30,534 nt of DNA from Miltoncostaeaceae bacterium (GTDB taxonomy: Bacteria; Actinomycetota; Thermoleophilia; Miltoncostaeales; Miltoncostaeaceae), in assembly GCA_035553775.1 (NCBI GenBank), contig DATMJR010000306.1, positions 1 through 30,534 of the forward strand, given 5' to 3'. Below, in pieces: positions 1,142-29,342 of the stretch (the first letter of the stretch is position 1; every line of letters begins with the position of its first letter). The position numbers and the translations under genes were made by a program. Below the pieces are notes generated by a model that was given only the letters and a program-made list of their open reading frames with translations, searched no databases and was not told the origin of the DNA.

Positions 1142-2314
1142 ATGCGCGTCGGCGTTCTCGGGATCGGAAAGACCCCGCACAAGATCCAGCACGGCAAGAG
1201 CCTGCGTGACCTGATCGTCGAGTCCGGCCGCAAGGCCATCGACGACGCCGGGGTGAGCCCGGCCGACATCCAGATGCTGTACGTCGGCAACGTGGGCTCG
1301 GTCGGCTTCAACTACGAGAACTCCACCGGCCTGATGGCCGCCCACCACCTCGGGGTGGTGCCGGCCGGCGCGGTGCGCGTGGAGGCCGCCTGCGGTACGG
1401 GCGCCTGGGCGCTGCACCTGGGCGTGGTGGCGATCGCCTCGGGCCTCTACGACACCGTGATGGTGGTCGGCGCCGAGAAGATGAACGACCTGGCGACGGT
1501 CGAGGGGACCTCGATCATCGCCCAGGCGGCCGACTCCAAGGAGGAGTACTTCTCGGGGCTCACCTTCCCGTCGGGGGTGGCGCTGACGGCACGCAAGTAC
1601 ATGCAGACCTACGGGCTGACCGAGGAGGACCTCGCCCACACCTCGGTCAAGAACCACCACTACGGCGCGCGCAACCCCTACGCCCACCTGCGCTTCGAGT
1701 GCACGGTGGAGGAGGTGATGCGCTCGGCCAAGGTGGCGGATCCCCTGAAGCTGTACGAGGTCTGCCCGATGACCGACGCCTCGTCGGCGCTGATCCTGTG
1801 CCGGGAGGAGATCCTGCGCGACCAGCCCGACAAGCCGCAGGTGTACATCACGGCCACCTCGATGGCGTCGGGCACCTGGTACGCGGCCACCGACACCCTC
1901 GAGGACGCCCACCGGCTGTTCTCCGAGCCCGCCGAGAGGGCGTACGCGATGGCGGGCGTCGCGGCGGGCGACGTCGACGTGGCCGAGATCTACAACTCGT
2001 TCGCGATCCAGGAGCCGCTCGGCATCGAGGGCCTCGGGTTCGCCGCGCCGGGCAAGGGCTGGCAGGGCGCCGCCGACGGCTCGACATGGATCGACGGGCA
2101 GGTGGGCGTCAACCTCTCCGGCGGCCTGCTGTGCAAGGGCCACCCGCTGGGGGCGACCGGCTCCAGCCAGGCGGTCGACATCGTCGAGCAGCTGCGTGGC
2201 ACGGCGCCCAAGGACATCCAGCGCGCCGACGCCGAGATCGGGATCTCGGCCTGCCGCGGCGGCCCGGGGGCGGTCGGCGCGATCCACGTGTACCAGCGCC
2301 TGGAGGGCGAGTGA
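1142..2314 (+). CDS. Thiolase, SCP2/archaeal type (PhlC/Ltp2-like family)
   Basis: EAACGTG (nucleophile Cys), VVGAEKM, KNHHYGARNPYAH, SGGLLCKGHPLGATG; RBS AGGAG upstream. Confidence 0.92.
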   Translation: MRVGVLGIGKTPHKIQHGKSLRDLIVESGRKAIDDAGVSPADIQMLYVGNVGSVGFNYENSTGLMAAHHLGVVPAGAVRVEAACGTGAWALHLGVVAIASGLYDTVMVVGAEKMNDLATVEGTSIIAQAADSKEEYFSGLTFPSGVALTARKYMQTYGLTEEDLAHTSVKNHHYGARNPYAHLRFECTVEEVMRSAKVADPLKLYEVCPMTDASSALILCREEILRDQPDKPQVYITATSMASGTWYAATDTLEDAHRLFSEPAERAYAMAGVAAGDVDVAEIYNSFAIQEPLGIEGLGFAAPGKGWQGAADGSTWIDGQVGVNLSGGLLCKGHPLGATGSSQAVDIVEQLRGTAPKDIQRADAEIGISACRGGPGAVGAIHVYQRLEGE

Positions 2315-5508: not shown

Positions 5509-6323
5509 CCGGACATCACCCAGCACTCCCAGCCGCCCCGGCGGACGACCGCCTGCACGCGCAGGCCCCGGGCGCGGTACAGGTCGGCGACCCGCCGCCC
5601 CTGGCCGGGGCGGAGACCCGACAGGACCGCCGCACGCGGGTGTGCATGCATGCATGCATCCAACGCCAGGTGACCCGCGAGGGGCAGGTTGGCGAGCAGC
5701 ACCGCCCCCCCGACCCCGGGTGCGAGGGCCTCCGCCGGCGCCGCGCGCAGCTCGGCCGTCCCCGCCAGGCCCGCGGCCGCCAGGCATGCGCGGGCATGGG
5801 CGACGGCGCCGGGGTCCAGATCCACCGCGCGCACCGGGCCGCGCCCCAGGCGTAGCCAGGCCTGCGTGAGCAGACCGGCGCCGCAGCCGACGTCGAGCGC
5901 CGGTCCCCGCGGCAGGCGCGCGAGCGCCGCCAGGCACATGGCGGTGGTGACGTGGCCGACCGGGCCGAAGCCCTCGCCGGGGGTCACCAGCAGCTCGCGC
6001 ACGCCCGGGGGCGCCGCGGCGTGACCCGGGGAGCGCAGGTACCAGCCGCCCAGCCAGGCGGCGGGCGGATCGGGCCAGCCCGGCACCCGCTCCAGGTGGG
6101 TGACCGGCACCGGGCAGCGCCGCAGGGCGGCGCCCGCCTGCTCGCCGCCGGCGCGGGGGGCGCACACGAGCCCGTCCGCCTGCCAGGCCACCGGCTGCAG
6201 GGGCGCCAGCGCCGGCCACACGCGCGCCAGGGCGGCCGGCGCGCCGGCGATGTGCAGCCCCGGAGGCAGCGGCAGGGGGCCGGTAGGGTCCGCCCCGATG
6301 GGGGATCCGGCGGAGGCGGTCAC
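5505..6323 (-). CDS. PrmA-like class I SAM-dependent methyltransferase, divergent; start uncertain
   Basis: PGEGFGPVGHVTTAMCL resembles PrmA PG.AFGTG.H.TT.LCL; also LDVGCGAG, VDLDP.AV, LANL, VLSGL. Confidence 0.7.
   Translation of the reverse strand: MTASAGSPIGADPTGPLPLPPGLHIAGAPAALARVWPALAPLQPVAWQADGLVCAPRAGGEQAGAALRRCPVPVTHLERVPGWPDPPAAWLGGWYLRSPGHAAAPPGVRELLVTPGEGFGPVGHVTTAMCLAALARLPRGPALDVGCGAGLLTQAWLRLGRGPVRAVDLDPGAVAHARACLAAAGLAGTAELRAAPAEALAPGVGGAVLLANLPLAGHLALDACMHAHPRAAVLSGLRPGQGRRVADLYRARGLRVQAVVRRGGWECWVMSG
5643..5659. repeat. (TGCA)4 tetranucleotide tandem repeat inside the methyltransferase CDS
   Basis: Sequence tgcatgcatgcatgcat read directly. Confidence 0.85.
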
Positions 6324-7620
6324 GCGTGCGGCGGCGGCGGGCTCGGCCGTCACGGCCATGTCCCTGGACGCACGGCTGGCCTGCGCCGCCCGCTCACGGG
6401 CGCTCCTGGCCGCGGCGGCCGACGCGGTCGTGGATGCGGCGGTGGCCGAGGCGGGTACGCCCCGCCGGTTCGCCCGGCGCGAGGTGGACTCGGCGCTCGG
6501 GCTGCTCGACGCCCTGCCGGCCCTGGCCGAGGCGATCCGCCCGCGCGCGGTGCCCGCGGCGTCCGGCACCACCACGCTCGAGTGGATGCCCTTCGGGGTG
6601 GTGTTCGGCTGGCACGCGGCCAACTCGCCCGTGTGGGTCCCGACGCTGGTCGCGTCGTCGGCGCTGGCCGGGGGCAACACGGTGGTCTGCCGTCCCTCGC
6701 GTCGCTGCCGGCGCACCACCGGGGTGGTGCTCGCGGCGCTGGCGGCCGCCTGGCCCGCCGACGCCCTGGTGGTGCTGGACGACCCCGACCCGGTGCGCGG
6801 CGAGGCGCTGATCGGCCATCCCGAGGTGGGCGCGGTCGTCGCGCACGCCTCCACCGCCACCTGCCGGCGCCACCTGGCACGGCTCGCCGAGGCCTGCGCC
6901 GCCGGCGCCCCGCTGCGCCCCTACATCCCCGAGGCCTCGGGCAACGACGCGATGATCGTGCTGCCCGGTGCCGACCCCGCCCGGGTGGCCGAGGCCGTCG
7001 CGCTCGGGGGGTACGCCAACGCCGGCCAGCTGTGCATGTCGGCCAAGCGGCTGATCGTGGACCGCACCGCATGGCCGGATCTGCGCGGGCCCCTTGCCGC
7101 GGCGATCGGCGCCCTGGTGGTGGGCGACCCCGACGACGAGCGCACGGACATCGGGCCGCTGGCCGAGGGACCGGCACGGACGCAGGCGCGCGCCGCGCTC
7201 GCCGAGGCGCGCGCGGCCGGGGGTGAGCTGGTGGTGGGGGAGGGGGAGCGCGGCGGCCTGTTCACGCCCACGCTGGTGCTGCTGCCCCGCCCGGTCCACG
7301 CCGCGCTGATGCTCTGGCGCGAAGAGGTGTTCGCGCCGCTGCGCTCGGTGGTGCTGGCCGACGGCCCCGAGGACGCGCTGGCGCTCGCCAACGACAGCGT
7401 CTACGGGCTCGGGGCGTCCGTGTTCGGCGGCGCCGGCGCGGCGCGCGACCGGGTGGTCGCCGGGCTGCGGGCGGCGCGGGTGGTGGTCGACGAGGGGCCG
7501 CTCTACCAGGACGCCCACCTGGTGGTGGGCGGGGTGGGCGACAGCGGCCTGGCGGGCGCCCGTCCCAAGATCGAGCAGCTGGTGTGGGCGCGCCGCACCC
7601 ATCGCGCCGCCGGGGGCTAG
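6298..7620 (+). CDS. Aldehyde dehydrogenase-fold protein, divergent
   Basis: PFGVV..WHAANSP, PEASGNDA (Glu), NAGQLCMS (Cys), EEVFAP, ANDSVYGLGASVF, GGVGDSG. ATG 6298 lies 8 nt after a TAGGGT -10-like hexamer (possibly leaderless); ATG 6358 is an alternative start. Confidence 0.85.
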   Translation: MGDPAEAVTRAAAAGSAVTAMSLDARLACAARSRALLAAAADAVVDAAVAEAGTPRRFARREVDSALGLLDALPALAEAIRPRAVPAASGTTTLEWMPFGVVFGWHAANSPVWVPTLVASSALAGGNTVVCRPSRRCRRTTGVVLAALAAAWPADALVVLDDPDPVRGEALIGHPEVGAVVAHASTATCRRHLARLAEACAAGAPLRPYIPEASGNDAMIVLPGADPARVAEAVALGGYANAGQLCMSAKRLIVDRTAWPDLRGPLAAAIGALVVGDPDDERTDIGPLAEGPARTQARAALAEARAAGGELVVGEGERGGLFTPTLVLLPRPVHAALMLWREEVFAPLRSVVLADGPEDALALANDSVYGLGASVFGGAGAARDRVVAGLRAARVVVDEGPLYQDAHLVVGGVGDSGLAGARPKIEQLVWARRTHRAAGG

Positions 7621-17125: not shown

Positions 17126-18028
17126 TCACCGCGCCGCGGGACGCGCCAGCGGCAGTGACGGCGCGGTGCGGATCCGCACCGCGCCCGTCGTGGCGTAGGC
17201 CACGGACTGGTGTGCGCCGAGGCGGCGCGACAGGCCGCGCGCGGCGGCCATGACCATCTCGGCCAGCTGGTCCACCCGCTCCGGGGTGACCCGGGTGACC
17301 GGGCCGCCGATGCCCATGGCGGCCACCACCCGACCGGTGTGGTCCCAGACGGGGGCGCCGATGCAGCGCAGCCCCTCGTCGTACTCCTCGTTGTCGATCG
17401 CATACCCCCGCTCACGGATGAGCGCCAGCTCCGAGGCCAACTGCTCGGCGTCGGTGATGGTGTGGGGGGTGTACCCGGCCAGGCCGCGGTCGGCGACGAT
17501 CCGGGTGATCTCCTCCTCGGGCAGGTAGGCGAGCAGCACCTTGCCCAGGTTGGTGGCGTGCACCGGGTAGCCCCGGCCGACCGCCGACGGGATGCGCAGC
17601 GCACGCCGGGCCTCGACGCGCTCGACGTAGATCGCCTCCCCCCCGTCGAGCACGGCCAGGTGGCCGGTCTCCCCGGAGTCCCGCACCAGGCCCTCCAGAA
17701 AGGGCAGGGCCTCGTCCCAAAGGTCCATCCGCTGCATCACCAGCCCGCCCAGCTCGAAGATGCGCAGCCCCAACCGGTAGCGGCCCGATCGCGGGTTGCG
17801 CTCCACCATGCCGGCCGCCTCCAGGTTGACCAGGAAGCGGTGCACGGTGGACTTGTGCAGCCCCAGGCGCTCCGCCAGCTCGCTGACGCGCAGCTCGGGC
17901 TGCTCGGCCGAGAAGGCGTTCAGGATCGCGACGGCCCGCTCGATCGCCTGGATCCGGTAGCGACCGTCCTGGGCGGGACGGTCGTCCTCGGTGCGGATGT
18001 GGGTCAGCTGCTCCATCGTGGGTCTCAC
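17126..18028 (-). CDS. IclR family transcriptional regulator
   Basis: IQAIERAVAIL, ELAERLGLHKSTVHRFL, GRYRLG, ETGHLAV, HATNLGKVLLA, RERGYAIDNEE...GLRCIGAPV. ATG 18016 is an alternative start. Confidence 0.95.
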   Translation of the reverse strand: MRPTMEQLTHIRTEDDRPAQDGRYRIQAIERAVAILNAFSAEQPELRVSELAERLGLHKSTVHRFLVNLEAAGMVERNPRSGRYRLGLRIFELGGLVMQRMDLWDEALPFLEGLVRDSGETGHLAVLDGGEAIYVERVEARRALRIPSAVGRGYPVHATNLGKVLLAYLPEEEITRIVADRGLAGYTPHTITDAEQLASELALIRERGYAIDNEEYDEGLRCIGAPVWDHTGRVVAAMGIGGPVTRVTPERVDQLAEMVMAAARGLSRRLGAHQSVAYATTGAVRIRTAPSLPLARPAAR

Positions 18029-18139: not shown

Positions 18140-18225
18140 ACCAGAACCAGATGTCGTCCTTCGATGACGCCGGTAGACTGACCCGGCCCACGGGACATCG
18201 CGACAGTCGCCACGAGGGGGCGGAA

Positions 18226-19473
18226 GTGGATCACACGGACGAGATCAGGGGGGCCGGGCCCGCGTCCCGACCCGCGGCACCGGCCCTCGACGGGCTGCGT
18301 CCGGCGCTGCGGGAGGCCGTCGAGGCCGCTCTCGACGGCGCCCGGCTCGACCGCCGCCACGCCATGGCGCTGGCCGACGTGCGGGGTGCCGAGCACCCGG
18401 CGGTGTGGGCGGCGGCGGCCGTGCTGCGCGACCGCGGCCGGCCGCGCGAGGTCACCTACTCGCGCAAGGTCTTCGTCCCGCTCACCAACCTCTGCCGCGA
18501 CGCGTGCTCCTACTGCACCTTTGCGCAACACGAGGACTCCCCGCGGGCGCACACCATGAGCCCGGACGAGGTGATGGCGCTGGTGGAGGCCGGCGCCCGG
18601 CGGGGCTGCAAGGAGGTGCTGTTCTGCCTGGGCGACCGCCCCGAGGCGCGCTGGCCGCGCTACCGGGAGGTCCTGCGCCGCTTCGGGCACGAGACCACCC
18701 ACGGCTACCTGGTGGCCATGTGCCGCGAGGTGGTCGAGCAGACCGGCCTGCTGCCCCACCCGAACGCCGGCGTGCTGTCGCGCCGGGAGCTCGCCGAGCT
18801 CAAGGAGGTCTCGGCGAGCCAGGGGCTGATGCTGGAGTCCGTGGCCGAGCGGCTGTGCGCACCGGGCGGTCCCCACGCCGACGCCCCCGACAAGCGCCCG
18901 TCCACGCGCCTGGCGATGATCCGCAAGGCGGGCGAGCTGCAGATCCCGTTCACCAGCGGGATCCTGATCGGCATCGGCGAGACCGCGGCCGAGCGCATCG
19001 AGGCGGTGCTGGCGCTGCGGGACCTGCACGAGACCCACGGGCACCTGCAGGAGGTCATCGTGCAGAACTTCCGCGCCAAGGAGGACACGCCGATGGCCGC
19101 CGCCGGCGAGCCCGGGCTGATCGAGCTGATGACCGCCTGTGCGATCACCCGCCTGATCATGGGCCCGGCGATGAGCATCCAGGCACCGCCCAACCTGTCG
19201 GCCGACTACGGGCCGCTGCTGCTGGCGGGCATCAACGACTGGGGCGGCATCTCCCCCCTCACCCCCGACTTCATCAACCCCGAGGCCCCCTGGCCCAACC
19301 TCGACCGGCTCGCGCAGCTGTGCGCCGAGGCGGGCTACCCGCTGCGCGAGCGGCTGACGATCTACCCGGGCTACGTGGACGACGACGCCTGGGTCGCCCC
19401 CGGGATGCGCGATCCCGTCCGCAGCCTCGCCGACCCCGTCAGCGGGCTCGCCCGCGAGGCGGTGCCCGCGTGA
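18226..19473 (+). CDS. cofG: 7,8-didemethyl-8-hydroxy-5-deazariboflavin (FO) synthase subunit CofG, radical SAM
   Basis: TYSRKVFVPLTNLCRDACSYCTF (CX3CX2C), SQGLMLES, PFTSGILIGIGET, EVIVQNFRAK, IQAPPNL, GINDWGGISP...NPEAPWP. Start is GTG 18226 or ATG 18151. Confidence 0.92.
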   Translation: MDHTDEIRGAGPASRPAAPALDGLRPALREAVEAALDGARLDRRHAMALADVRGAEHPAVWAAAAVLRDRGRPREVTYSRKVFVPLTNLCRDACSYCTFAQHEDSPRAHTMSPDEVMALVEAGARRGCKEVLFCLGDRPEARWPRYREVLRRFGHETTHGYLVAMCREVVEQTGLLPHPNAGVLSRRELAELKEVSASQGLMLESVAERLCAPGGPHADAPDKRPSTRLAMIRKAGELQIPFTSGILIGIGETAAERIEAVLALRDLHETHGHLQEVIVQNFRAKEDTPMAAAGEPGLIELMTACAITRLIMGPAMSIQAPPNLSADYGPLLLAGINDWGGISPLTPDFINPEAPWPNLDRLAQLCAEAGYPLRERLTIYPGYVDDDAWVAPGMRDPVRSLADPVSGLAREAVPA

Positions 19474-21323
19474 CCGTCACCTTCGTGCGCCGTGCCCGCC
19501 CCGGTGCCGACGCGGCCGCCGGACGCCCCGCCGGCCTGACCACGCTCGAGGGCGGCCTGGACGCCGCCGGGGTCGCCGGGGCACTGACCGCGGGCCTGCT
19601 GCCCGTGGACACCTCCGCCGCCTGCACCGCGGCCGCCGCCTGGATCGCCGACCCCGCCCGGGCACTCGCCCTGGGCGAGGAGGGCATCCCCGGCTGGCGG
19701 CTGACCGTGCGCCATGCCGGCAGCCGTGCCGAGGTGCTCGACGCCCTCGCGCGCACGGGGGCCCCCTGGCTGCGCACCACCACCGACCGGGTCGCCGAGG
19801 CCGCCTCGATCACCGATCTGCCCGGCCTCGACGCCGTGGTCTCGGTGGAGGTCGACGACCTCGACGCGGCCGTCGCGGCCGTCCGCGCCGGGGCGCTCGA
19901 CCTGGTGATCGGCGGGTGGTCCGACGACGCGCTCGGCGCCCTCCGCGACGCGCTCGCCCCCGCGCGGGTCGTGGAGCGCACCGCCCTGCCGCTGGGCGTG
20001 GAGATCGACGCCGCGCGCGCGGCGCTGCCCGCCGCTGCCTTCACGGCCTGGTGCCACCTCACCGACGGCGCCGGTGCGGCGCGGCCCCGCTACGTCTGGG
20101 CACCCGGGCGCGACATGGACCCACCGGTGCCGGCACGGCGGCTGTCGGCCGAGTGGGCCGACGCGGCCTGGACCGGCGCGGCCCCCGAGCCGTCGCTGGA
20201 GGACCTCCACCCCACCCTGGCCGGGATCCTCGAGCGATCGCTGGCCGGCACGCCGCCCACCCGCGACGAGGTCGAGGCCCTGTTCCGGGCCCGCGGCGCG
20301 GAGGTCGAGGCGATCGCCGGGGTGGCCGACACGCTGCGCGAGCGGGCCTGCGGCGACGTTGTCACCTACGTGGTCAACCGCAACATCAACTACACCAACC
20401 AGTGCTACTTCCGGTGCGGCTTCTGCGGCTTCTCCCGCGGGCCGAAGTCGGCCGGGTTCCGCGACGAGCCCTACATCCTCGAGACCCACGAGGTGGTGCA
20501 CCGCTCGGTGGAGGCCTGGGAGCGGGGCGCCACCGAGGTGTGCCTGGTGGGCGGCATCCACCCCCGGTTCACCGGCGACTTCTACGCCGGGGTGCTGGAG
20601 GCCATCAAGGCGCGGCTGCCCGAGATGCACGTGCACGGGTTCACGCCGCTGGAGGTCTGGCAGGGGGCCGCCACCCTGGGCGTGAGCGTCGAGCAGTTCC
20701 TGACGCGGATGCGCGACGCGGGCCTCGGCACACTGCCGGGCACGGCTGCCGAGATCCTCGACGACGAGGTCCGCGCATTCCTGTGCCCGGACAAGATCAC
20801 CACCGCCGAGTGGGCGGACGTGATGATCACCGCCCATCGGCTCGGGCTGCGCGCCACCAGCACGATCATGCACGGCCACATCGACCACCCCCGCTCCTGG
20901 GCCAACCACTACGAGGTGCTGCGCCGCATCCAGGAGCGCACGGGCGGCTTCACCGAGTTCGTGCCCCTGCCGTTCGTGCACATGGGCGCACCCATCTACC
21001 TGCAGGGCCTGTCGCGCCCGGGCCCCACCTGGGACGAGGTGGTGCTGATCCACGCCGTCGCCCGCATCGCCTTCGACGGGCTGATCCCCAACATCCAGGC
21101 CAGCTGGGTCAAGCTCGGACTGGGCGGCGGGTCTCGCCTGCTGCAGGCCGGCTGCAACGACCTCGGCGGCACGCTGATGAACGAGAGCATCTCGCGCTCG
21201 TCCGGCGCCTCGCACGGCCAGCTGGCCACCCCCGAGGAGCTGGAGGCGGCCATCCGGCGCATGGGGCGCACGCCCGCGCGGCGCAACACGGTCTACGAGC
21301 GACTGGAGGCGACCGCCTCCTAG
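19470..21323 (+). CDS. cofH: FO synthase subunit CofH (radical SAM) with an about 240-aa N-terminal extension
   Basis: GTG overlaps the cofG stop (GTGA). VTYVVNRNINYTNQCYFRCGFCGFS, LPGTAAEILDDEVR, STIMHGH, TEFVPLPF, NIQASWVKLG, NDLGGTLMNESISR. Confidence 0.9.
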   Translation: MTVTFVRRARPGADAAAGRPAGLTTLEGGLDAAGVAGALTAGLLPVDTSAACTAAAAWIADPARALALGEEGIPGWRLTVRHAGSRAEVLDALARTGAPWLRTTTDRVAEAASITDLPGLDAVVSVEVDDLDAAVAAVRAGALDLVIGGWSDDALGALRDALAPARVVERTALPLGVEIDAARAALPAAAFTAWCHLTDGAGAARPRYVWAPGRDMDPPVPARRLSAEWADAAWTGAAPEPSLEDLHPTLAGILERSLAGTPPTRDEVEALFRARGAEVEAIAGVADTLRERACGDVVTYVVNRNINYTNQCYFRCGFCGFSRGPKSAGFRDEPYILETHEVVHRSVEAWERGATEVCLVGGIHPRFTGDFYAGVLEAIKARLPEMHVHGFTPLEVWQGAATLGVSVEQFLTRMRDAGLGTLPGTAAEILDDEVRAFLCPDKITTAEWADVMITAHRLGLRATSTIMHGHIDHPRSWANHYEVLRRIQERTGGFTEFVPLPFVHMGAPIYLQGLSRPGPTWDEVVLIHAVARIAFDGLIPNIQASWVKLGLGGGSRLLQAGCNDLGGTLMNESISRSSGASHGQLATPEELEAAIRRMGRTPARRNTVYERLEATAS

Positions 21324-21325
21324 GG

Positions 21326-21349
21326 GGGCGCCGGGGCTACCCGGCGCCC
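21326..21349. terminator. Hairpin between convergent cofH and fprA
   Basis: Perfect 10-bp inverted repeat gggcgccggg-gcta-cccggcgccc overlapping the fprA stop. Confidence 0.55.
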
Positions 21350-22758
21350 TGCTGCTTGCGCTCGGCGAGCGCGGCCAGCATCTCCTCGACCTTGCTGAAC
21401 TTGAGCCGCGGGCGCTGGCCCACCTGGCCGCGCTCCTGCTCGAGCATGTCGATCACCTGCCAGTCGTCGTAGGAGACGAAGTCCTGGCGGCGCTCGCGCA
21501 GCAGCCGCTCCAGCACCGCCCGCGGCGGCACGTCGGGCTTGCTCAGCCGGCCGGCCTTGAGGTCGTCCAGCAGCATCTCGACGGTCTCCTGGGAGTCCGG
21601 CTTGTTGGTGCCGATGATCCCCCGCGGCCCGCGCTTGATCCACCCCACCACGTACTCGCCGCGGACCACGTCGCCCGAGATCGGGTCCTGGATGCGTCCG
21701 GCCTCGTTGGGGATCACCCCGTGCAGGGCGTCGAAGGGGATGCCCGGCAGCGGGATGCCCTGGTAGCCGATCGCGCGGAACACCAGGTCGACGGGGATCG
21801 TCTCGGTGTCGTCGGTCACCCGGGCGCGCAGCTGGCCGTCCTCGCCCCGGTAGAGCTCGTTGCGCGCCACCACGAGCGCCTCGACGCGCTCGCTGCCGAG
21901 GATCTCCACGGGTGAGACCAGGAAGCGCAGCACGACCCGGCGCGACGCGCCCGAGAGCGGCCTCGCGGCGTAGCGGTTGAGCACCTCGATGTTGGTGTCG
22001 CGGGTGCGGTCGGGCATCCGCGCGACCTGGTGGGCGCTCAGGGGGTCGAGGGCGGCCTCGTGCGGGTCCACGACCACGTCGCAGTCGCGGATCTCGCCGA
22101 GCTCGCGCAGCTCCTTGGTGGTGAACGCGGCCTGCGCCGGACCGCGCCGGCCGAGCACGATGATCTCGCGGATGCGGCTCTCGGCCAGCGCCGCCAGCGC
22201 GTGCTCGGCGATGTCGGTGGTCGCCAGCTCCTCCGGCGGCGAGGCCAGGATGCGGGCGAGGTCCATGGCCACGTTGCCGTTGCCCACCACCACCGCGCGC
22301 TCGCCCGACAGGTCAAACGACAGCGAGCGGAAGTCGGGGTGGGCGTTGTACCAGCCCACGAACTCGGTGGCCGAGTGGCTGCCGGGCAGGTACTCGCGCG
22401 GGACGCCCATGCGCCGGTCGGTGCGGGCGCCGACCGCGTAGATGATCGCGTGGTAGTAGGCCGACAGGTCCGCGTGGGTGATGTCGCGGCCGAGTTCGAC
22501 GTTGCCGAAGAAGCGGAACTCCGGATGGGCGGCGATCCGGTCGTACACCCGCGTGACCGACTTGATCTTCTGGTGGTCGGGGGCGACGCCGCCGCGCACG
22601 AGGCCGAACGGGGTGGGCAGCCGGTCGTACATGTCGACCTGGACGAACAGGTCGGGCTGGTTCTGCAGGTGCTCGGCGGCGTAGAACCCGGAGGGTCCGG
22701 AGCCGACCACCGCGACGCGCAGCGGCTGCGGGGGGGTCCCGAGCGGGCTGTCGGTCAA
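21337..22758 (-). CDS. fprA: NADPH:ferredoxin reductase, adrenodoxin-reductase type (FprA-like)
   Basis: VAVVGSGPSGFYAA, RLPTPFGLVRGGVAPDH, GNGNVAMDLARIL, GRRGPAQAAFT.KEL, GWIKRGPRGIIGTNK. TTG start with GAGGAGG RBS. Confidence 0.92.
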   Translation of the reverse strand: MTDSPLGTPPQPLRVAVVGSGPSGFYAAEHLQNQPDLFVQVDMYDRLPTPFGLVRGGVAPDHQKIKSVTRVYDRIAAHPEFRFFGNVELGRDITHADLSAYYHAIIYAVGARTDRRMGVPREYLPGSHSATEFVGWYNAHPDFRSLSFDLSGERAVVVGNGNVAMDLARILASPPEELATTDIAEHALAALAESRIREIIVLGRRGPAQAAFTTKELRELGEIRDCDVVVDPHEAALDPLSAHQVARMPDRTRDTNIEVLNRYAARPLSGASRRVVLRFLVSPVEILGSERVEALVVARNELYRGEDGQLRARVTDDTETIPVDLVFRAIGYQGIPLPGIPFDALHGVIPNEAGRIQDPISGDVVRGEYVVGWIKRGPRGIIGTNKPDSQETVEMLLDDLKAGRLSKPDVPPRAVLERLLRERRQDFVSYDDWQVIDMLEQERGQVGQRPRLKFSKVEEMLAALAERKQQGAG

Positions 22759-22822
22759 ACGTCCTCCTCGCGACGGCGGATGAGCCGCGCAGCCTAACCC
22801 GGCCGCCGGTGCCCGGCCCCGC

Positions 22823-23560
22823 TCAGCCCCGGAACAGGTCGTGCGCGGCCGCGCGCACGAGCGCCCCGGCGCCGCCCGGCGACGGCCGGGCGACCAGGCC
22901 GGAGACCACCACGACCGGGGTGCCCCCCGCCTTGGGCATCAGCAGTCCGGAGGCCGCCGCCAGCTCGTCGGCGAGCGCCTGCTCGGTGGCCACCAGCACG
23001 CGGCCCTCCCGGTCGGTCTCCCCGCGCCGGTCGAGCACCGGCTCGATGCCGGCCACGCCGATCGCGATGTTCACCAGGCCGCGGCGGAAGGCCCGGCCGT
23101 GGGTGTCGGTGACCACCACCCCGACCCGCCCGCCGACACGGGCCGCGACGGCCGCCTGCAGGCGGCGCGCCGAGGCGTCCGGGTCGCGCGGCAGCAGGAT
23201 CGCGCACCCCGGGGGGGCGTTGGAGGTGTCGATGCCGGCGTTGGCGCACACGAAGCCGTGATGGGTCTCACAGATCAGGGTGGCGCCGCGGCGGCGCACG
23301 ATCCGGCGGCTCTCGGCCAGGATCAGTGCGCACAGGCCGGGGTCCTTGCCGGTCAGGCCGGCGAGCGCCCGCGCGCGGGCGTCCGGGGCGACCGCCGCGA
23401 GCGCGACCACGCGGCCCTCGGCCTTGGAGACGATCTTGTGGGCCACCACCAGCACGTCGCCCGCCACGACGCCGTCGGCCGCCGCGAGGCCGGCGAGGAG
23501 GCCGGGCAGGTCGTCGCCGGGACGCACCTCGGGCACGCCCGGCAGCGCGCGCAGCCTCAG
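22823..23560 (-). CDS. cofE: Coenzyme F420-0:L-glutamate ligase, stand-alone (no nitroreductase domain)
   Basis: LPG.PEVRPGDDL, VVAHKIVSKAEGR, ETHHGFVCANAGID.SN, LLPRDPDASA, TDTHGRAFRRG, ADELAAAS, P.VVVSG. Likely CTG start at 23560; alternatives are GTG 23608 and TTG 23629. Confidence 0.92.
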   Translation of the reverse strand: MRLRALPGVPEVRPGDDLPGLLAGLAAADGVVAGDVLVVAHKIVSKAEGRVVALAAVAPDARARALAGLTGKDPGLCALILAESRRIVRRRGATLICETHHGFVCANAGIDTSNAPPGCAILLPRDPDASARRLQAAVAARVGGRVGVVVTDTHGRAFRRGLVNIAIGVAGIEPVLDRRGETDREGRVLVATEQALADELAAASGLLMPKAGGTPVVVVSGLVARPSPGGAGALVRAAAHDLFRG

Positions 23561-24231
23561 GGGGCCGTCCCCACGGTCAGCCGGCCCGCCAGGCCGTGAC
23601 GGACGCACACCTCCGTGGTGCGGCACCAACCGTGGGCGCCGGCGGCGATCGGTGCCAGGTCCGCGGGGGTGTCGACGTCCAGGGCGATCCGCGGCAGCGC
23701 CAGCTCGGTCAGCACCAGCCCGCGCTCGCGGGCGAGCGCGGCGTGCTGGGCGCGCGAGTCCGGACCCAACCGGGTCGGCATCGCCTCGGCGGGGTCCAGC
23801 AGCAGGGCGTTGGTGCCCGTGCCGTCGCGCGAGGGCACCAGCACCACGCCGCCCGCCACGGCCGGGGCGGCGGCCACGATCGCGGCCAGGTCCTCCGGGC
23901 GGGTCAGGGGCAGGTCGGCGGTCAGCACCAGCGCCCGCCGGCCCTGGCGGGCGGCGTCGGCGCGCCCGATCGCGACGGCGGCGTTCATCCCCTGGGGTGG
24001 CGCGTGGTCCGGCAGCAGCCGGGCGCCGAAGCCCGCGGCCAGCTGCCCCGCCGCGGGATCCGAGGTCACCACCAGGAGCGCGTCCAGCGCCGCGCAGCCC
24101 CGGCAGGCGTCGAGCAGGTCGGCCAGCATCGCGGCCTGCAGGTCGCGGCGCTCGGCGGGCGCCAGCACCGCCGCGAGCCGGCCGAGCGCGCGGCCGAGGG
24201 GCTTGACCGGGATGACCGCCTGGACGCTCAC
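23557..24231 (-). CDS. cofC: Phosphoenolpyruvate/2-phospho-L-lactate guanylyltransferase CofC/FbiD
   Basis: VIPVK....RL, ML.D.L, VVTSD, GMNAAV, ADLP, DGTGTNAL, LGPDS..H, LDVDTPADL. GTG overlaps the cofD stop. Confidence 0.92.
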   Translation of the reverse strand: MSVQAVIPVKPLGRALGRLAAVLAPAERRDLQAAMLADLLDACRGCAALDALLVVTSDPAAGQLAAGFGARLLPDHAPPQGMNAAVAIGRADAARQGRRALVLTADLPLTRPEDLAAIVAAAPAVAGGVVLVPSRDGTGTNALLLDPAEAMPTRLGPDSRAQHAALARERGLVLTELALPRIALDVDTPADLAPIAAGAHGWCRTTEVCVRHGLAGRLTVGTAP

Positions 24232-25154
24232 GCGGCCGCCGCGTCCAGGCACGCGGCCGCGAGGCGGGCCCGCGCGGGGCGGTCGGGCATCAGCGCGTCG
24301 GTCAGCACCGGCCGCACGTCGAGGTCGGCCACCGCGTCGGCCTCCCCGGCGTCGCGCGCGTCGAGCACGAACGTCCCCGCGACGTCCGCGTAGATGCGCG
24401 CCATCTGGGTCGCCGAGCACTCGGGGTAGCCGGCGCCGGCCAGGAACCGGTGGGCCGGCCCCTCCACGGGACGCCCGCCGATGATCGGGCTGACCGCCAC
24501 CGTGTCGGCGCGCCGCGCCTGCAGCGCCGCGCGCAGGCCGGGCACGGCCAGGATCGTCCCGATCGAGACGACCGGGCTGGAGGGGGCGATCACGATCCGT
24601 TCGGCCGCGGCGATCGCCTCCAGGGCGCCCGGCACCGGCGCGGCCTCGGTGACGCCGTCCATGCGGATGGCGGTGATCTCCTCGCCGGCGCCGTCGCGGA
24701 CCAGGTACTCCTGGAAGGTCCGCTCCCCCGTCGGCGTGGTGATGCGCGTGCGCACCGGCGCGTCGCACATGGGCAGTACGCGGGCCTCCACCCCCAGGCG
24801 CGCGCACAGCTCGGCGGTGACCCGGTGCAGCGGCACCCCCTCGCCGAGGCGGACGGTGCGGTAGAGGTGGGTGGCCAGGTCGCGGTCGCCGAGGCCGAAC
24901 CAGGCGGGCAGCCCGTAGGTCGCCAGGCCCTCCAGGCAGCGGAAGCTGTCGTCGGCGTAGCCCCACCCGCGCGCGTCGACCACGCCGGCGAGCACGTAGG
25001 TGCAGATGTCGAGGTCCGGGCAGACCCGCAGGCCGTAGAAGTCGCCGTCGTCGCCCGTGTTGACGATGGCCGTCAGCGCCTCCTGGCCGACCACCTGGGC
25101 GAGCCCGTCGACCATCTTCGAGCCGCCGGTGCCGCCCGACAGGACCAGGATCAC
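24228..25154 (-). CDS. cofD: 2-phospho-L-lactate transferase CofD/FbiA
   Basis: LSGGTGGSK, VNTGDD, PDLD...Y.LAG, WFGLGDRDLATH, LPMCD..VRT, FQEY.VR, VAVSPIIGG..V.GPA. Confidence 0.95.
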   Translation of the reverse strand: MILVLSGGTGGSKMVDGLAQVVGQEALTAIVNTGDDGDFYGLRVCPDLDICTYVLAGVVDARGWGYADDSFRCLEGLATYGLPAWFGLGDRDLATHLYRTVRLGEGVPLHRVTAELCARLGVEARVLPMCDAPVRTRITTPTGERTFQEYLVRDGAGEEITAIRMDGVTEAAPVPGALEAIAAAERIVIAPSSPVVSIGTILAVPGLRAALQARRADTVAVSPIIGGRPVEGPAHRFLAGAGYPECSATQMARIYADVAGTFVLDARDAGEADAVADLDVRPVLTDALMPDRPARARLAAACLDAAAA

Positions 25155-25157: not shown

Positions 25158-26066
25158 TCAGGCAAGGGGCGTGCGCTCATCGGGGCCGGGGGATGGTATC
25201 CGCCCCCGGGCCCCCGCGCCCACGACGAGCCAGAGCCCGAGCGCCACCCCGACGACGCCCGCCACCAGCGACGCGCCCGGGGTCTCCCCCAGCAGCGGCC
25301 AGGCCGTCAGCACGCCGACCACCGGCACCAGGAAGAACCAGGCCGAGACCTCGCCGGCCGGCGCCAGACGCAGGGCCACGTAGAAGAGCGCCAGGGGCGC
25401 CGCCGACCCCGCCGCGCCCAGCACCACCACCAGCGCCGCGGTGCTCGCATCGACGTCGACGGGGCCGCGCTCGGCGGCCAGCGAGGCGAGCGCCAGCACC
25501 CCGGCGCCCAGCAGCATCTGCCACCCCGCCAGCGCCATCGCCGACCCGGTGCCGCGCAGGCCGCGCACGGCCACCACCGTGCCGATCCCCCAGGCGAAGG
25601 CGCCGCCGACCACCACCAGCGCCGCCGGCGACACGGTCGGCGGCCACAGCCGGTCGTCGCCCACCGCCACCGCCACCCCCACGAACCCGACCCCCAGGCC
25701 GGTCCACTGCAGCCGCGTGAGCCGGTCGCCGAGGAACAGGGCCCCCAGGGCGGCGACGAACAGCGGGTCGGTGTTGGCCAGCACCGCCGCCAGGCCCGCC
25801 CCCTCGTGGGCGATCCCCCAGAAGGTCGCCCCGTAGAAGAGCGTCGTCTGGGTGAGCGCCAGCCAGAACAGGCTCGCCGCCCCGACCCCGGGTGCGACCG
25901 GGTGCCCCCGGGCCACCAGCACCGCCAGCACGATCAGCCCGGCGGCGCCCAGCCGCGCGGCGGCGGCGGCCAGCGGCGGCAGGTCGTCCACCAGCCAGGC
26001 CGACGGCACGTAGGCGGAGCCCCAGCACAGCATCGCGCCGGCGGCCAGGAGGCCGGGGGACCTCAG
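25158..26066 (-). CDS. EamA/DMT family transporter
   Basis: C-terminal about 300 aa of track ORF 25158..27818. Shows CWG, AAARLG, GLAAVLANTDPLF.AAL, LFLGDRL...W.G...GF.GV, AW..G and PV.GVL.AW.LLGE. Start is CTG 26066 (overlapping the dctM TGA) or ATG 26033. Confidence 0.88.
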   Translation of the reverse strand: MRSPGLLAAGAMLCWGSAYVPSAWLVDDLPPLAAAAARLGAAGLIVLAVLVARGHPVAPGVGAASLFWLALTQTTLFYGATFWGIAHEGAGLAAVLANTDPLFVAALGALFLGDRLTRLQWTGLGVGFVGVAVAVGDDRLWPPTVSPAALVVVGGAFAWGIGTVVAVRGLRGTGSAMALAGWQMLLGAGVLALASLAAERGPVDVDASTAALVVVLGAAGSAAPLALFYVALRLAPAGEVSAWFFLVPVVGVLTAWPLLGETPGASLVAGVVGVALGLWLVVGAGARGRIPSPGPDERTPLA

Positions 26067-28060
26067 TGCTCGACGAGGTTCGACAGGGCGAGGACGACCT
26101 CCGACGGCAGGTACGTGACCAGGAACAGCACCAGGATGCTCACCAGCAGCCAGGGGATGATCGTGATCGACAGCCGTTCGATCGGCACCCGGGCGATGCT
26201 CGACACCAGGAACAGCACCAGCCCGATCGGCGGGTGGATCAGTGCCAGCACGAGGTTGAACACCATGATCAGCCCGAAGTGCACCGGGTCGATGCCGAAC
26301 TCGAGCGCCGCCACGGGCGCCAGGAACGGCGCCAGGATGTAGAGCGCCGGCAGGGGCTCGATGAAGATGCCCACCAGCAGCAGCATCACGTTGACCACCA
26401 GCAGGAACACGTACTTGTTCGTGCTGATGCCGGTCATGAACTCCTGGAGCGACTCCCCGAACCCGTCGCGGAACAGCGCCTTGGCGAGGATCGTCGAGTC
26501 GCCCAGCAACAGCATCACCACGCCCGCCTCGAGCCCGGCCAGGATCAGCGCATCGGGCAGCTGGCGGGGCGAGATGGTGGCGTACATGAACAGCCCCATC
26601 CCGATCGCCACCAGCGCCGCCACCGCCGCCGACTCGGTCGGGGTGAACACGCCGGTGAAGATGCCGCCGAGGATGATCACCGGGATCAGCAGCACGGGCA
26701 GCGCCGACCGGCTGGTGCGCACCACCTGCCCGATGCCGGCGAACCGCCGCCGCGGGATCATGTCCAGCCGGCGCACGACCACGTAGACGGTCGCGGCCTG
26801 GAACAGGAACAGCAGGATCTCGGCGAACACCCCCGACAGCAGCAGCGCCGAGATCGACGCCGAGCCGGGACCGGTGACGATCGCCCCGTAGACGATGAAC
26901 ATCACCGAGATCGGCCCGATCGGGCCCTTGATCGAGGCGCCCGCGACCACCGCGGCGGCCACGTCGCGGCGGTAGCCCTCGCGCTCCATCGCCGGCACCA
27001 GGATCGGGGTCATGATCGCCGCATCGGCCTGCGCGGAGCCGGAGATGCCCGAGGCCAGCGCCGAGGTCAGCTGGCAGACGTAGGCCATGCCGCCGCGCAG
27101 GTGACCGACCAGCGCGGCCGCGAACGCGATCAGCCGGGTCGACATGCCGCTGGCGTTCAGGACCTCGGCGACCACGAGGAACATCACGATCACCAGCAGC
27201 TCGCCGCCACCGGTGAGGCCCATCGCGCCCTGCGTGGTGCTGAACGGGGCGATCAGGTCGGGGCTGGGGTAGAACGACAGCCCCAGGAACTCGGGATGGA
27301 GCGCCAGGATCCCGACCACGCTCAGCATGAACACGATCGGCATGCCGGCCAGCGTGAGCGTCACGAAGATGATCCCGAGCACGATCAGCTCGGACACCTG
27401 CGTGAACTGCAGCAGCGAGTAGCAGACCGCCCAGAGCACGGCGGCCATCACGAGCGCGCCCCCCAGTCCCTGGGCGGCGTCGCGCAGCCCCGCCCGCCCG
27501 CGCGCGGCCACCGGCCGCAGCGCCGTGACCGACTGGGTGAGGTAGTGCAGGGTGATGAAGTAGTAGCCGACGGTCATCGAGACCAGGGCGTAGAAGAGCG
27601 CCACCGAGATCGACTGGGCCGTCTGATCGCGCCAGGCCTGCGCGAACGGGAACTGGGTCGCGCGCACGCACGAGTAGGCCAGCAGCACCCCCAGCGACAG
27701 GGCCGCGAAGGTCTGCACCGAGCGCTGCCACCCGGCCGGCCCCCGGTGGGAGACGAACGTGATCACGGTGACCGCGCTGCGGCGCACGGCCAGCGAGACG
27801 CCCATCCAGATCGCCCACAGGTAGGCGAACCGCGCCAGCTCCTCCGAGCTGAAGATGGAGAAGCCGGGCACGTTGCGCGTGAACACGTTGCCGGCGATCG
27901 CGAACATGATCAGCAGCACCGCGCCCACCGTGATCACGCGGGCGATCGCCACCGCCGCGCGCGCGTAGACCTCGAGCACGCCCTCGACGCGCCCGAGCAC
28001 CTGGGCGACCACGGGCTCGGGCGACCGCGCCGGGGCCTGCTCTGCCGTGGTCGTGGTCAT
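26063..28060 (-). CDS. dctQM: Fused TRAP transporter small and large permease (DctQ-DctM)
   Basis: N-terminal DctQ-like SEELARF...W...G.SLAVRR; DctM motifs GMPI.F.L, L.GHLRGG, SGISGSA.AD, PAM.REGY, GGIFTGVFTPTESAA, GIDPVHFG, HPPIG..LF. Confidence 0.92.
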   Translation of the reverse strand: MTTTTAEQAPARSPEPVVAQVLGRVEGVLEVYARAAVAIARVITVGAVLLIMFAIAGNVFTRNVPGFSIFSSEELARFAYLWAIWMGVSLAVRRSAVTVITFVSHRGPAGWQRSVQTFAALSLGVLLAYSCVRATQFPFAQAWRDQTAQSISVALFYALVSMTVGYYFITLHYLTQSVTALRPVAARGRAGLRDAAQGLGGALVMAAVLWAVCYSLLQFTQVSELIVLGIIFVTLTLAGMPIVFMLSVVGILALHPEFLGLSFYPSPDLIAPFSTTQGAMGLTGGGELLVIVMFLVVAEVLNASGMSTRLIAFAAALVGHLRGGMAYVCQLTSALASGISGSAQADAAIMTPILVPAMEREGYRRDVAAAVVAGASIKGPIGPISVMFIVYGAIVTGPGSASISALLLSGVFAEILLFLFQAATVYVVVRRLDMIPRRRFAGIGQVVRTSRSALPVLLIPVIILGGIFTGVFTPTESAAVAALVAIGMGLFMYATISPRQLPDALILAGLEAGVVMLLLGDSTILAKALFRDGFGESLQEFMTGISTNKYVFLLVVNVMLLLVGIFIEPLPALYILAPFLAPVAALEFGIDPVHFGLIMVFNLVLALIHPPIGLVLFLVSSIARVPIERLSITIIPWLLVSILVLFLVTYLPSEVVLALSNLVEH

Positions 28061-28081
28061 GTGACCGTCCGGGGGAACCGG

Positions 28082-28115
28082 CCCCCCGGCGGCGGCGCGG
28101 CCGGCCGCCGGGGGG
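28082..28115 (-). other. Intercistronic stem-loop between dctP and dctQM
   Basis: Perfect 12-bp inverted repeat ccccccggcggc-N10-gccgccgggggg. Hairpins after substrate-binding-protein genes commonly set mRNA stoichiometry (inference). Confidence 0.6.
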
Positions 28116-28138
28116 ACGTCGTCAGAGTCGCAGGTCTA

Positions 28139-29260
28139 TCAGCCTGCCAACTCGCAGGAACCCGTTCGGGAGGTCGGGAACGGCGGCGGTGCCGCCGGGG
28201 CCTGCGCGTCCTCCTTCAGGTCCTGGATCTGCTGCAGGAACCGACCGGTGGTCTCGTCCTGCGACAGGGACGTGTACGCCTGCTCGGCCCGGGCCTGCAG
28301 GCCCTGCACCTCGGCCGGGGTGGCGGTCACGAACTGCACGCCGCAGTTGACCAACTGCTGCGGCAGGTCCGATCCGGTCGACACGATCTCGATCGAGCGT
28401 GCCGGCACCTTGGCCGCCGCATCCCGGAGGATCTGCTGGTCCTCCTCGGACAGCCGCTCCATCACCTGGTTGTTGATGACCAGGGCGGTCGGGAACGGCC
28501 ACAGGTTGACGTTGCCGGTCACGAACCGCGCGACCTCGTAGTACTTGTTGGTCGCGATCAGGCCGAGGTTGGCCTCCATGCCGTCGACGGTGCCGTTCTT
28601 CAGGGCCTGGTACACCTCCGGCAGCGGCAGCGGGTCGGCCTCGGCGCCCAGCGCCTGCAGCCCGGCGGCGAGCACCTTGGACTGCGGGGCGCGGATCTTG
28701 GTGCCGCGGAACGACGCCACCGAGTCGAGCGCGTTCTTGGCGCCGACCGGCTTGCGCAGACCACCCTCGTGAATGGTCAGCACGGTCACGTCACCGGCCG
28801 TCTCCGACGCCGATTCGGCCATCGCCTGGCCGATCTCGCCCTCGAGGATCTGGCTCTCGAGCTGGTAGTTCGAGACCAGCAGCGGCGCCTGCAGGGCCTG
28901 GAAGGCGTTGATGCCCGCCGAGTCCCAGATGGCCGTGGAGATCGTGGCCATGTCCACCGAGCCACCGCGGACGTCCGCCAGCAGCTGGGGCTCCGGCTGC
29001 GGGTAGCTCGGCCGCGTGTTGATCGTGATCCGTCCGCCGGAGGCCCGCTCGACCTCCTGCTTGAAGAAGTCGATCGCCTGCCCGTACGGGTGCTGGGCGG
29101 TGGTCACGTAGGCGAGGGTCAGCTCGACCGACTCGCCCCCACCCTCCGTGCCGCTGCCCGCCTCGTCGTCGTCGTCGCCACACGCGGCGACGCCGAGCGC
29201 CAGGGCAAGCGCCGACACCATCACCAGCACCCGTGTGGTCCACGAGCGTCGTCTCACCAT
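28139..29260 (-). CDS. dctP: TRAP transporter substrate-binding lipoprotein DctP
   Basis: Lipobox LGVAA-C, EVERASGGRI, VRGG.VDM, GTKIRAP (carboxylate-binding Arg), EVYQALKNGTVDGME. ATG 29260 has a GGAGGGG RBS. Confidence 0.92.
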   Translation of the reverse strand: MVRRRSWTTRVLVMVSALALALGVAACGDDDDEAGSGTEGGGESVELTLAYVTTAQHPYGQAIDFFKQEVERASGGRITINTRPSYPQPEPQLLADVRGGSVDMATISTAIWDSAGINAFQALQAPLLVSNYQLESQILEGEIGQAMAESASETAGDVTVLTIHEGGLRKPVGAKNALDSVASFRGTKIRAPQSKVLAAGLQALGAEADPLPLPEVYQALKNGTVDGMEANLGLIATNKYYEVARFVTGNVNLWPFPTALVINNQVMERLSEEDQQILRDAAAKVPARSIEIVSTGSDLPQQLVNCGVQFVTATPAEVQGLQARAEQAYTSLSQDETTGRFLQQIQDLKEDAQAPAAPPPFPTSRTGSCELAG

Positions 29261-29342
29261 GCGCCCCCTCCAGAACCGGTTGTCCATGTGTCGTTCGCGG
29301 CGAGGACGCCCGGGGCCGACGGCACGGCGGGCATCCGGCGCG

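Follow-up and report, generated by a model that had tools for sequence, protein, structure and literature searches.

Here, we report that fprA, a gene for an adrenodoxin-reductase-type NADPH:ferredoxin reductase, is a fixed member of the F420 biosynthesis island in a family of Thermoleophilia, where it is predicted to be co-transcribed with cofD, cofC and cofE, with translational coupling to cofE in some of the genera. FprA is tentatively put forward as a candidate electron supplier to the F420 pathway, a role that we regard as possible rather than probable and in which electrons would pass via ferredoxin to the radical-SAM proteins CofG and CofH. The side-chain step is separate from this electron role, and for it the lineage would use either 2-phospho-L-lactate (2-PL), another reductase, or FprA.

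Organization of the F420 locus

The window, that is the whole stretch of 30,534 nt that was analysed, had its genes called with Pfam and NCBIfam models and holds a Cof-type F420 biosynthesis island in which cofG and cofH converge on fprA-cofE-cofC-cofD. The radical-SAM subunits of FO synthase are encoded on the plus strand by cofG (18151..19473; TIGR03550, 447 bits, cut-off 213) and cofH (19470..21323; TIGR03551, 485 bits over residues 265-611). The minus strand carries the transferase gene cofD/fbiA (24228..25154; TIGR01819, 285.8 bits, cut-off 257), the gene for a guanylyltransferase of the PEP/2-PL type, cofC/fbiD (23557..24231; TIGR03552, 152 bits), the gene for a single-domain F420-0:L-glutamate ligase, cofE (22823..23629; TIGR01916), and fprA (21337..22758; 473 aa; Pfam Pyr_redox_2, with matches to PDB 1LQT and 1CJC). 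The cofD stop and the cofC start overlap in the sequence GTGA. Located between cofH and cofE, fprA encodes the sole oxidoreductase of the cluster, and no ferredoxin or flavodoxin gene was found in the cluster or in the window.

Transporter genes precede fprA-cofE-cofC-cofD in the island on the same minus strand. An EamA/DMT-family gene (25158..26060; Pfam EamA) lies 3 nt upstream of cofD, which it adjoins in most relatives, and is itself preceded by genes for a TRAP transporter, comprising a fused DctQ-DctM permease (26063..28060; Pfam DctM and DctQ), whose position upstream of the cof genes is kept in relatives, and a DctP-family solute-binding protein (28139..29287; Pfam DctP) for which comparison with the PDB gave no informative neighbour, so that its ligand is not inferable. 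At the other end, an IclR-family regulator (17126..18028, minus strand; Pfam IclR_C and HTH_IclR) is divergent from cofG, and this neighbourhood is also kept in relatives. CofH is extended at its N terminus by about 250 aa (19470-20219), a segment conserved in 10 relatives at a mean column identity of 61%; its AF2 model is TIM-barrel-like but generic (Z <=9.9), and structure comparison of the model returned no specific match by which a function could be assigned. The host is a soil bacterium of the Thermoleophilia, probably a member of the Miltoncostaeaceae, and a transcript search matched the locus only in soil DNA runs.

The spacer of 64 nt between cofE and fprA (22759..22822, minus strand), read directly, contains the hexamer TAGGCT (22796-22791, minus strand). 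It lies 32 nt upstream of the fprA start codon, a TTG that is preceded by a GAGGAGG Shine-Dalgarno sequence. The first-pass annotation had taken the hexamer as a hint of a possible separate fprA promoter. The hexamer is there, and a TANNNT hexamer is found 30-34 nt before the fprA start in long-spacer loci of other genera, so that comparison supports the suggestion modestly, and only for some genera; a scan for the sigma-70 consensus found no promoter. At loci L012, L014, L015, L030, L034 and L058 the cofE stop and the fprA start abut (0 nt) or overlap by 4 nt.

FprA has a canonical sequence

The gene after cofE had been read as encoding an FAD/NADPH reductase of the FprA type, and the product is indeed homologous to M. 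tuberculosis FprA over its full length, aligning end-to-end with PDB 1LQT (E = 5e-131, residues 11-461 against 2-451) and also matching bovine adrenodoxin reductase (1CJC, E = 2e-98). The N-terminal FAD motif GxGxxG (VVGSGPSG) and the central NADPH motif GxGxxA (GNGNVAMD) are both present, and VAPDH (His57), TTKELREL (Glu214) and GRRGP (NADPH 2'-phosphate) align with the 1LQT residues that we take, in M. tuberculosis FprA numbering, to be His57 and Glu214 of the catalytic site and the two Arg that contact the NADPH 2'-phosphate; the His57 column is marked by the H57Q mutant entry 2C7G. As judged from its sequence, FprA is a canonical adrenodoxin-reductase-type flavoprotein with FAD and NADPH.

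The cof-linked FprAs fall mainly in one clade (SH-aLRT 99). Among 466 aligned columns, 93 were invariant and a single residue was specific to the clade of cof-linked as against unlinked FprAs, which points to unchanged chemistry, and a neofunctionalised cof-linked FprA was accordingly rejected. A function as F420 reductase was rejected as well: Fno scored above its cut-off in 5/5 genomes examined, and FprA is therefore not needed for reducing F420 itself. No Fgd was found.

Conservation of the cofE-fprA linkage

In 56 sampled genomes of the same family as the source, cofE and fprA co-occur in an identical set of 36, of which 34 have fprA immediately after cofE on the same strand. The first-pass annotation had made its proposal depend in part on such synteny with cof genes in relatives, which thus holds. 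The adjacency exceeds chance, and in other families of the class cofE and fprA are both common and never adjacent. At least 12 genera retain the cluster, and their FprAs are as little as 52% identical. In genus g2, where 56-70 kb separate cofG and cofH from cofDCE, fprA has remained beside cofDCE; the adjacency also outlasted replacement of the FO synthase genes and the insertion of a Fic gene in G002.

That FprA might be a mere passenger without a dedicated part in F420 synthesis, an NADPH-ferredoxin reductase of general function that is present in the island by descent and gained or lost by contiguity, appears improbable to us. It would be in keeping with the canonical sequence and with the wide occurrence of unlinked homologues, which all other families of the class possess; among 80 loci from Chloroflexota, Solirubrobacterales and Thermoleophilaceae with 54-66% identity, 74 had no cof gene within 4 kb. 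Co-deletion of neighbouring genes is, moreover, trivial, and since one deletion removes both cofE and fprA where they are adjacent, their co-occurrence overstates functional coupling. Yet mere descent accounts poorly for a gene order maintained over so many genera and at such divergence, for stop and start codons that abut or overlap in several of them, and for an adjacency that persisted through FO synthase replacement and the Fic insertion. In the class sample, FprA was absent from 20/20 cofE-negative genomes of the family, where a housekeeping enzyme would be retained; in family genomes without F420 genes FprA therefore has no general housekeeping role. The sole exception in the family is G021, which has FprA without F420 genes.

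The association is not a rule for the class. At least three cofE- and cofH-positive genomes (G071, G044 and G053) lack FprA, and G071 also lacks any PF00881 gene; FprA can therefore not fill the place of the missing reductase in general. In family f3, the occurrence of FprA is independent of cofH (30/40 vs 6/9), and FO synthase is therefore not generally FprA-dependent. Class-wide tracking of FO synthase or of cofE by FprA was rejected on these grounds, as neither was discriminated.

The dehydro-F420-0 reduction step

CofE, of at most 268 aa, matches TIGR01916 with 263.6 bits (cut-off 180.65) over model positions 4-244 of 244, and the two-domain FbiB model NF009810 is matched below its cut-off and at positions 11-243 of 449 only. 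CofE therefore lacks a nitroreductase (NTR) domain, as had been noticed from the letters, and the accompanying statement that no nitroreductase gene lies in the window agrees with a PF00881 search, which gave none there. The motifs DGTGT and LGPDS, likewise reported for CofC, are both present. The accompanying statement on CofC of the 3-PG type, that it has His and Ser at the Gly positions of these motifs, was right for Ser162, which replaces the Gly of LGPDS, and wrong for His145, which replaces the first Thr of DGTGT. Ser or Thr at Ser162 of Mycetohabitans CofC, supported by His145, is diagnostic of 3-PG activation (PMC8764529); aligned to the 3-PG-type CofC of PDB 7P97, CofC here has Gly in the former column and Thr in the latter and does not pass as 3-PG-activating. 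The 3-PG route is thus disfavoured by these residues. Use of PEP or of 2-PL is not distinguishable from CofC sequence (PMC8764529), and a reductase is accordingly not a proven requirement.

The first-pass annotation had suggested a genome search for homologues of FbiE or of FbiB's C-terminal domain (FbiB-C). In the assembly, which is 85% complete, PF00881 identified five NTR-superfamily genes, all on other contigs. The best of these reached 54 bits with TIGR03553, whose cut-off for the FbiB-C/FbiE type is 249.55 bits, and 0/41 genomes (the source and 40 relatives) exceeded it. FbiB-C (4XOM) was the last match or no match when three of the NTRs were compared with the PDB. Three NTR types were profiled directly over about 60 family genomes and the L003 type was read indirectly, from weak matches. 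The L002 and L004/5 types occur in all relatives, with cofE or without; the L001 type occurs in cofE-negative genomes and in 0/12 genomes of the cofE-positive genera g2 and g19. The L001 gene adjoins fno in G000 and G023. An FbiE elsewhere in the genome was rejected, as no examined NTR type tracks cofE (L003 read indirectly), and so was the L001 NTR beside fno, owing to its absence from the 12 g2 and g19 genomes. An archaeal MJ0144-type Dus-like flavoprotein was also rejected (TIGR00736, best 30.6 bits in five genomes, cut-off 218.7). With synteny in 34/36 genomes and no FbiB or FbiE equivalent found, FprA therefore truly belongs to the F420 locus of this family and is conserved there.

The first-pass annotation had gone further and suggested, beside electron supply to the radical-SAM enzymes, use of 2-phospholactate and accumulation of dehydro-F420, that FprA may itself reduce dehydro-F420-0. 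As a non-orthologous replacement of FbiB-C/FbiE, it would transfer a hydride from FADH2 to the enolpyruvyl group in a MurB-like manner, or would serve as the NADPH-dependent component that provides reduced flavin or ferredoxin to a terminal enzyme. We consider this rather unlikely. Its appeal is largely one of position: fprA lies directly 3' of cofE, in the place of the NTR domain of FbiB, is coupled to cofE in several genera and remains with cofDCE when cofGH are far off. No TIGR03553 match above cut-off and no MJ0144-type homologue compete for the step, and the NTRs of the genome neither resemble 4XOM nor track cofE. But C=C bond reduction is not known to us from any enzyme of the adrenodoxin reductase family, the active site has not diverged in the cof-linked FprAs, and the cof cluster of G011 has no linked fprA, only an unlinked paralogue with 55% identity. 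G071, with neither FprA nor NTR, indicates that another solution exists in the class, and a CofC sequence that fits PEP or 2-PL leaves the requirement itself unproven. The conserved position of fprA thus stands, and nothing beyond position was gained for this role from the canonical sequences, G011 or the FprA-free cofE- and cofH-positive Thermoleophilia. FbiB-C requires externally reduced FMN in vitro (PMC6450877), and in 2024 the reductase of organisms with monofunctional CofE was still termed a yet-unknown enzyme (PMC10949242); both were counted in favour of the role. The broader idea that an adrenodoxin-reductase-type flavoprotein, alone or with ferredoxin or free flavin, constitutes an NADPH-dependent dehydro-F420-0 reductase system, and hence, after FbiB-C and FbiE, a third solution that is not homologous to them, is given a low probability.

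No reductase would be needed if CofC and CofD use 2-PL, as proposed for archaea, or if the cell keeps dehydro-F420. This explanation, to which we assign a limited but somewhat higher likelihood, concerns the missing step only and would fit whatever role FprA has. Cof-type enzymes, namely a stand-alone CofE and split CofG/CofH, are consistent with it, as are the NTR-free, cofE-positive genomes G036 and G071 of the class. In family f3 a class II aldolase-domain protein follows cofE and is reminiscent of the lactaldehyde route of Methanocaldococcus; this protein was rejected as a candidate here, having no homologue in f1 or f5. Every CofC assayed in vitro favours 2-PL (PMC8764529). Against this, neither a lactate kinase nor another origin of 2-PL is known from any organism (PMC6450877), the cluster has no kinase, and dehydro-F420 is less stable than F420 (PMC8498797).

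A possible electron input to CofG and CofH

Enzymes of the adrenodoxin reductase/FprA type reduce ferredoxins, and radical-SAM enzymes need electron donors of the ferredoxin type. In the role that we favour for FprA, NADPH would reduce its FAD, which would then pass electrons to a small ferredoxin whose gene lies elsewhere, and this carrier would hand single electrons to the [4Fe-4S] clusters of CofG and CofH, each of which would consume one electron per turnover for FO. A path of this kind would be the most economical mechanism, as it uses the known chemistry of FprA. Its canonical sequence, the cofE linkage, the abutting start and stop codons, the conservation over many genera, the mainly single clade, its standing as sole oxidoreductase of the cluster, its absence from family genomes without F420 genes and the presence of Fno were counted in favour. 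Counted against it were the lack of a linked ferredoxin or flavodoxin gene, the genus g2, where fprA stays with cofDCE and far from cofG/H, the FprA-free G071, G044 and G053, the lack of cofH tracking in f3 and the ease of co-deletion; relatives without F420 genes, moreover, operate other radical-SAM enzymes without FprA.

The family offers a clean natural case, with a compact and conserved cof operon, no FbiE-type enzyme found and exactly one extra redox gene. Should fprA shift the ratio of dehydro-F420 to F420, a new reductase system would be at hand; should it raise FO output, it would be an activator dedicated to FO synthase, and recombinant production of F420 could benefit from it; and if it does neither, this would argue for a 2-phospholactate route in bacteria.

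Comparison with known systems

FprA shares its two-domain FAD/NADPH architecture with M. tuberculosis FprA (1LQT/1LQU) and bovine adrenodoxin reductase (1CJC). Mycobacteria have an FbiB with its own reductase domain, and to our knowledge their fprA is not linked to fbi genes, whereas the gene described here is operonic with cofD-cofC-cofE and, within the family, almost confined to genomes bearing F420 genes. In E. coli, Fpr and FldA carry electrons from NADPH through a flavoprotein and a small one-electron carrier to the [4Fe-4S] cluster of radical-SAM enzymes, which would be the same working mode as that proposed for FprA; E. coli Fpr is, however, a plant-type FNR, and FprA is of the adrenodoxin reductase type and has no linked carrier gene.

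With FbiB's C-terminal NTR domain (4XOM/4XOO/4XOQ) and with FbiE, the likeness is that of a redox enzyme encoded right after the CofE module. It is positional, as FbiB-C and FbiE have the FMN-dependent nitroreductase fold and FprA the unrelated FAD/NADPH adrenodoxin-reductase fold. A stand-alone FbiE is attributed to Thermomicrobium roseum (Braga et al. 2020, as cited in PMC8498797). Bashiri et al. 2019 (PMC6450877) left open how F420 gains its saturated lactyl side chain where CofE is monofunctional. Cof-type bacterial clusters with such a CofE occur in Paracoccus, Oligotropha and Chloroflexi (PMC8498797), and they have in common with the present locus the stand-alone cofE, cofC and cofD, an Fno encoded elsewhere and the same question of dehydro-F420-0 reduction. 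The locus reported here differs from them in its split cofG and cofH, the TIM-barrel-like CofH extension of 250 aa, the EamA and TRAP genes within the operon and the presence of fprA as its last gene.

Organization of the F420 locus

The assembly behind contig C306 comes from a soil metagenome and comprises 2.75 Mb in 443 contigs (85% complete, G+C about 74%). Pfam and NCBIfam scans of the window place cofG (18151-19473) and cofH (19470-21323) on the plus strand, convergent with an fprA-type gene (21337-22758) that is followed on the minus strand by cofE (22823-23629), cofC (23557-24231), cofD (24228-25154), an EamA/DMT transporter (25158-26060), a TRAP permease with fused DctQM (26063-28060) and DctP (28139-29287). 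The minus-strand genes are tightly packed, with 2-3 nt gaps or stop/start overlaps, except for a spacer of 64 nt between cofE and fprA. The transporter genes (25158-29287, minus strand) lie upstream of cofD in one tightly packed transcription unit with it, and most relatives within the family (f1) likewise have EamA next to cofD, the TRAP genes, or both; that they carry a deazaflavin or a C3 acid is a guess. An aldehyde dehydrogenase gene (6100-7620, plus strand) is located 11 kb away from the F420 genes.

The first-pass annotation described CofE as a single-domain protein without a nitroreductase (NTR) domain, and this holds: the protein has at most 268 aa, matches TIGR01916 over its whole length (263.6 bits) and is matched by only the first half of the two-domain FbiB model. 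CofC carries the reported DGTGT and LGPDS motifs. In an alignment with the CofC specific for 3-phosphoglycerate (3-PG; 7P97) and FbiD of M. tuberculosis (6BWG), the window's CofC has Gly at the column of Ser162 and Thr at that of His145, the two diagnostic residues of the 3-PG enzyme (PMC8764529). The first-pass reading of this CofC as something other than a 3-PG enzyme therefore stands. Its statement that His replaces a Gly was mistaken, the column being occupied by Thr. CofH has an N-terminal extension of about 250 aa (19470-20219, plus strand) without a Pfam match, which is kept in 10 f1 relatives with 61% mean column identity and an invariant WAPG.D..P.P..R.S motif. Residues 1-200 were modelled confidently by AF2 as a small TIM-barrel-like fold, with generic barrel matches only (Z ≤ 9.9).

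Conservation of the cofE-fprA linkage

Among 56 f1 genomes, cofE was found in 36 and a strong FprA match (E < 1e-60) in exactly those same 36. In 34 of these, fprA directly follows cofE on the same strand. The cofE stop abuts the fprA start at four loci (L012, L030, L034 and L058) and overlaps it by 4 nt at two others (L014 and L015). At least 12 genera keep the whole layout, in which MaoC-aminotransferase-IclR is divergent from cofG-cofH, converging on fprA-cofE-cofC-cofD-EamA-TRAP. Other families of the class that bear F420 genes commonly have both cofE and fprA, but never side by side, and among FprA loci of Chloroflexota and other Thermoleophilia a cof gene is lacking within 4 kb in 74 of 80 cases. 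That FprA is a passenger gene is improbable, and the least favoured of the roles weighed here for FprA: co-deletion of neighbours does inflate its co-occurrence with F420 genes, but a passenger is hard to square with the translational coupling to cofE and with the near-complete lack of FprA in relatives devoid of F420 genes.

Two genomes depart from the pattern. In G002, cofE and fprA are separated by an inserted Fic-domain gene on the opposite strand (HPFPDGNGRTSR motif; L013:10462-11640, minus strand). The cofG/cofH of this genome are different and resemble those of family f3 (59% identity); the FO synthase looks like the fused FbiC type, probably, and the CofH extension is missing. In G011, the gene after cofE encodes instead a small membrane protein (about 230 aa; L016:9394-10116, minus strand), and the sole FprA, at 55% identity, is on another contig and groups with that of G021, the one cofE-negative f1 genome with an unlinked-type FprA in an earlier sample of relatives.

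The TTG start of fprA is preceded, at a distance of 32 nt, by a TAGGCT hexamer. The long-spacer loci L010, L011, L024 and L025 have a TANNNT hexamer upstream of the start, at 30-34 nt in the three measured (L010, L011 and L024), and in other genera there is no cofE-fprA spacer at all. A sigma-70 consensus scan found no promoter. An internal fprA promoter is possible in some genera.

Absence of a recognisable side-chain reductase

As noted in the first pass, the window has no NTR gene: none of the five PF00881 genes of the assembly is on contig C306. The proposed search for FbiE/FbiB-C homologues gave none above cut-off in the window's genome or 40 relatives, where the FbiB C-terminal model (cut-off 249.55 bits) was matched at 67 bits at best. 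When three NTRs of the genome were compared with the PDB, FbiB-C (4XOM) was the last match for two and no match for the third. The YdjA-like NTR of locus L001 is convergent with fno, which encodes the NADPH-dependent F420 reductase (contig C239, 286-849, plus strand, and 1169-1795, minus strand), and the same pairing is found in G023. As an FbiE this type was rejected, since none of the 12 genomes sampled from the cofE-positive genera g2 and g19 has it and many cofE-negative genomes do; the L002 and L004/5 types were rejected since they occur in all relatives, cofE present or not. The L003 type appears patchy and as uninformative as the others, read indirectly from the search for another type. 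An archaeal Dus-like candidate reductase was absent. Taken together, these model, structure and distribution results show no recognisable dehydro-F420-0 reductase alongside the F420 genes.

The single-contig genome G036 has cofE, cofH and FprA with zero PF00881 genes, and G071 (99% complete) has cofE and cofH with neither an NTR gene nor FprA. There must therefore be a further solution in Thermoleophilia, neither NTR nor FprA, which could be 2-phospholactate or another enzyme. In f3, another family of Thermoleophilia, cofE is followed by a gene for a protein of about 350 aa whose C-terminal part is a class II aldolase domain and whose N-terminal half is unassigned (L017:8171-9319, minus; L018:10417-11481, plus; L020:11147-12211, plus). 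Searches of f1 and f5 genomes found no homologue of this protein, which could be tied to lactyl precursor supply.

Possible roles of FprA

The gene after cofE was correctly assigned to the FprA type: its product aligns end to end with FprA of M. tuberculosis (1LQT, E = 5e-131) and bovine adrenodoxin reductase (E = 2e-98) and retains the NADPH motifs as well as the catalytic His and Glu positions. The cof-linked FprAs fall mainly into one clade (SH-aLRT 99) and are set apart from 76 unlinked FprAs by one conserved position, Ala329 instead of Ser, while 93 columns are invariant over all linked and unlinked sequences. Because only this position differs and so many columns are invariant, the alignment argues for an unchanged chemistry, in which electrons would pass from NADPH through FAD to a one-electron acceptor. 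Fno was above cut-off in all five f1 genomes tested, and FprA is therefore not needed for recharging F420.

The F420 pathway makes two redox demands, one from the radical-SAM enzymes CofG and CofH, at their [4Fe-4S] clusters, and, if PEP is the substrate, another from dehydro-F420-0 reduction. That FprA serves the latter is doubtful. Its position after cofE, the absence of any FbiE and the dependence of FbiB-C itself on externally reduced flavin (PMC6450877) speak for it, but the canonical FprA sequence, the unlinked fprA of G011 and the gene content of G071 weaken it. We tentatively rank first a supply of electrons to CofG and CofH, because it requires no further, uncharacterised enzyme and fits the known activity of the FprA family. 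Against this supply role, no ferredoxin gene is linked to the F420 locus, fprA of g2 stays with cofDCE while cofGH are 56-70 kb off, several cofH-positive genomes are without FprA, and in f3 FprA does not follow cofH (30/40 versus 6/9). Nothing in these data marks FprA out as the enzyme that finishes the side chain.

An adrenodoxin-reductase-type enzyme fixed behind cofDCE is not described in PMC8498797, PMC6450877, PMC8764529 or PMC10949242, and the arrangement bears on how organisms with a monofunctional CofE finish the F420 side chain. The F420 genes of the window are ordinary Cof-type genes, and its FprA is an ordinary family member; what is new is the placement of such a reductase, conserved as the gene that closes cofDCE in a lineage lacking FbiE.
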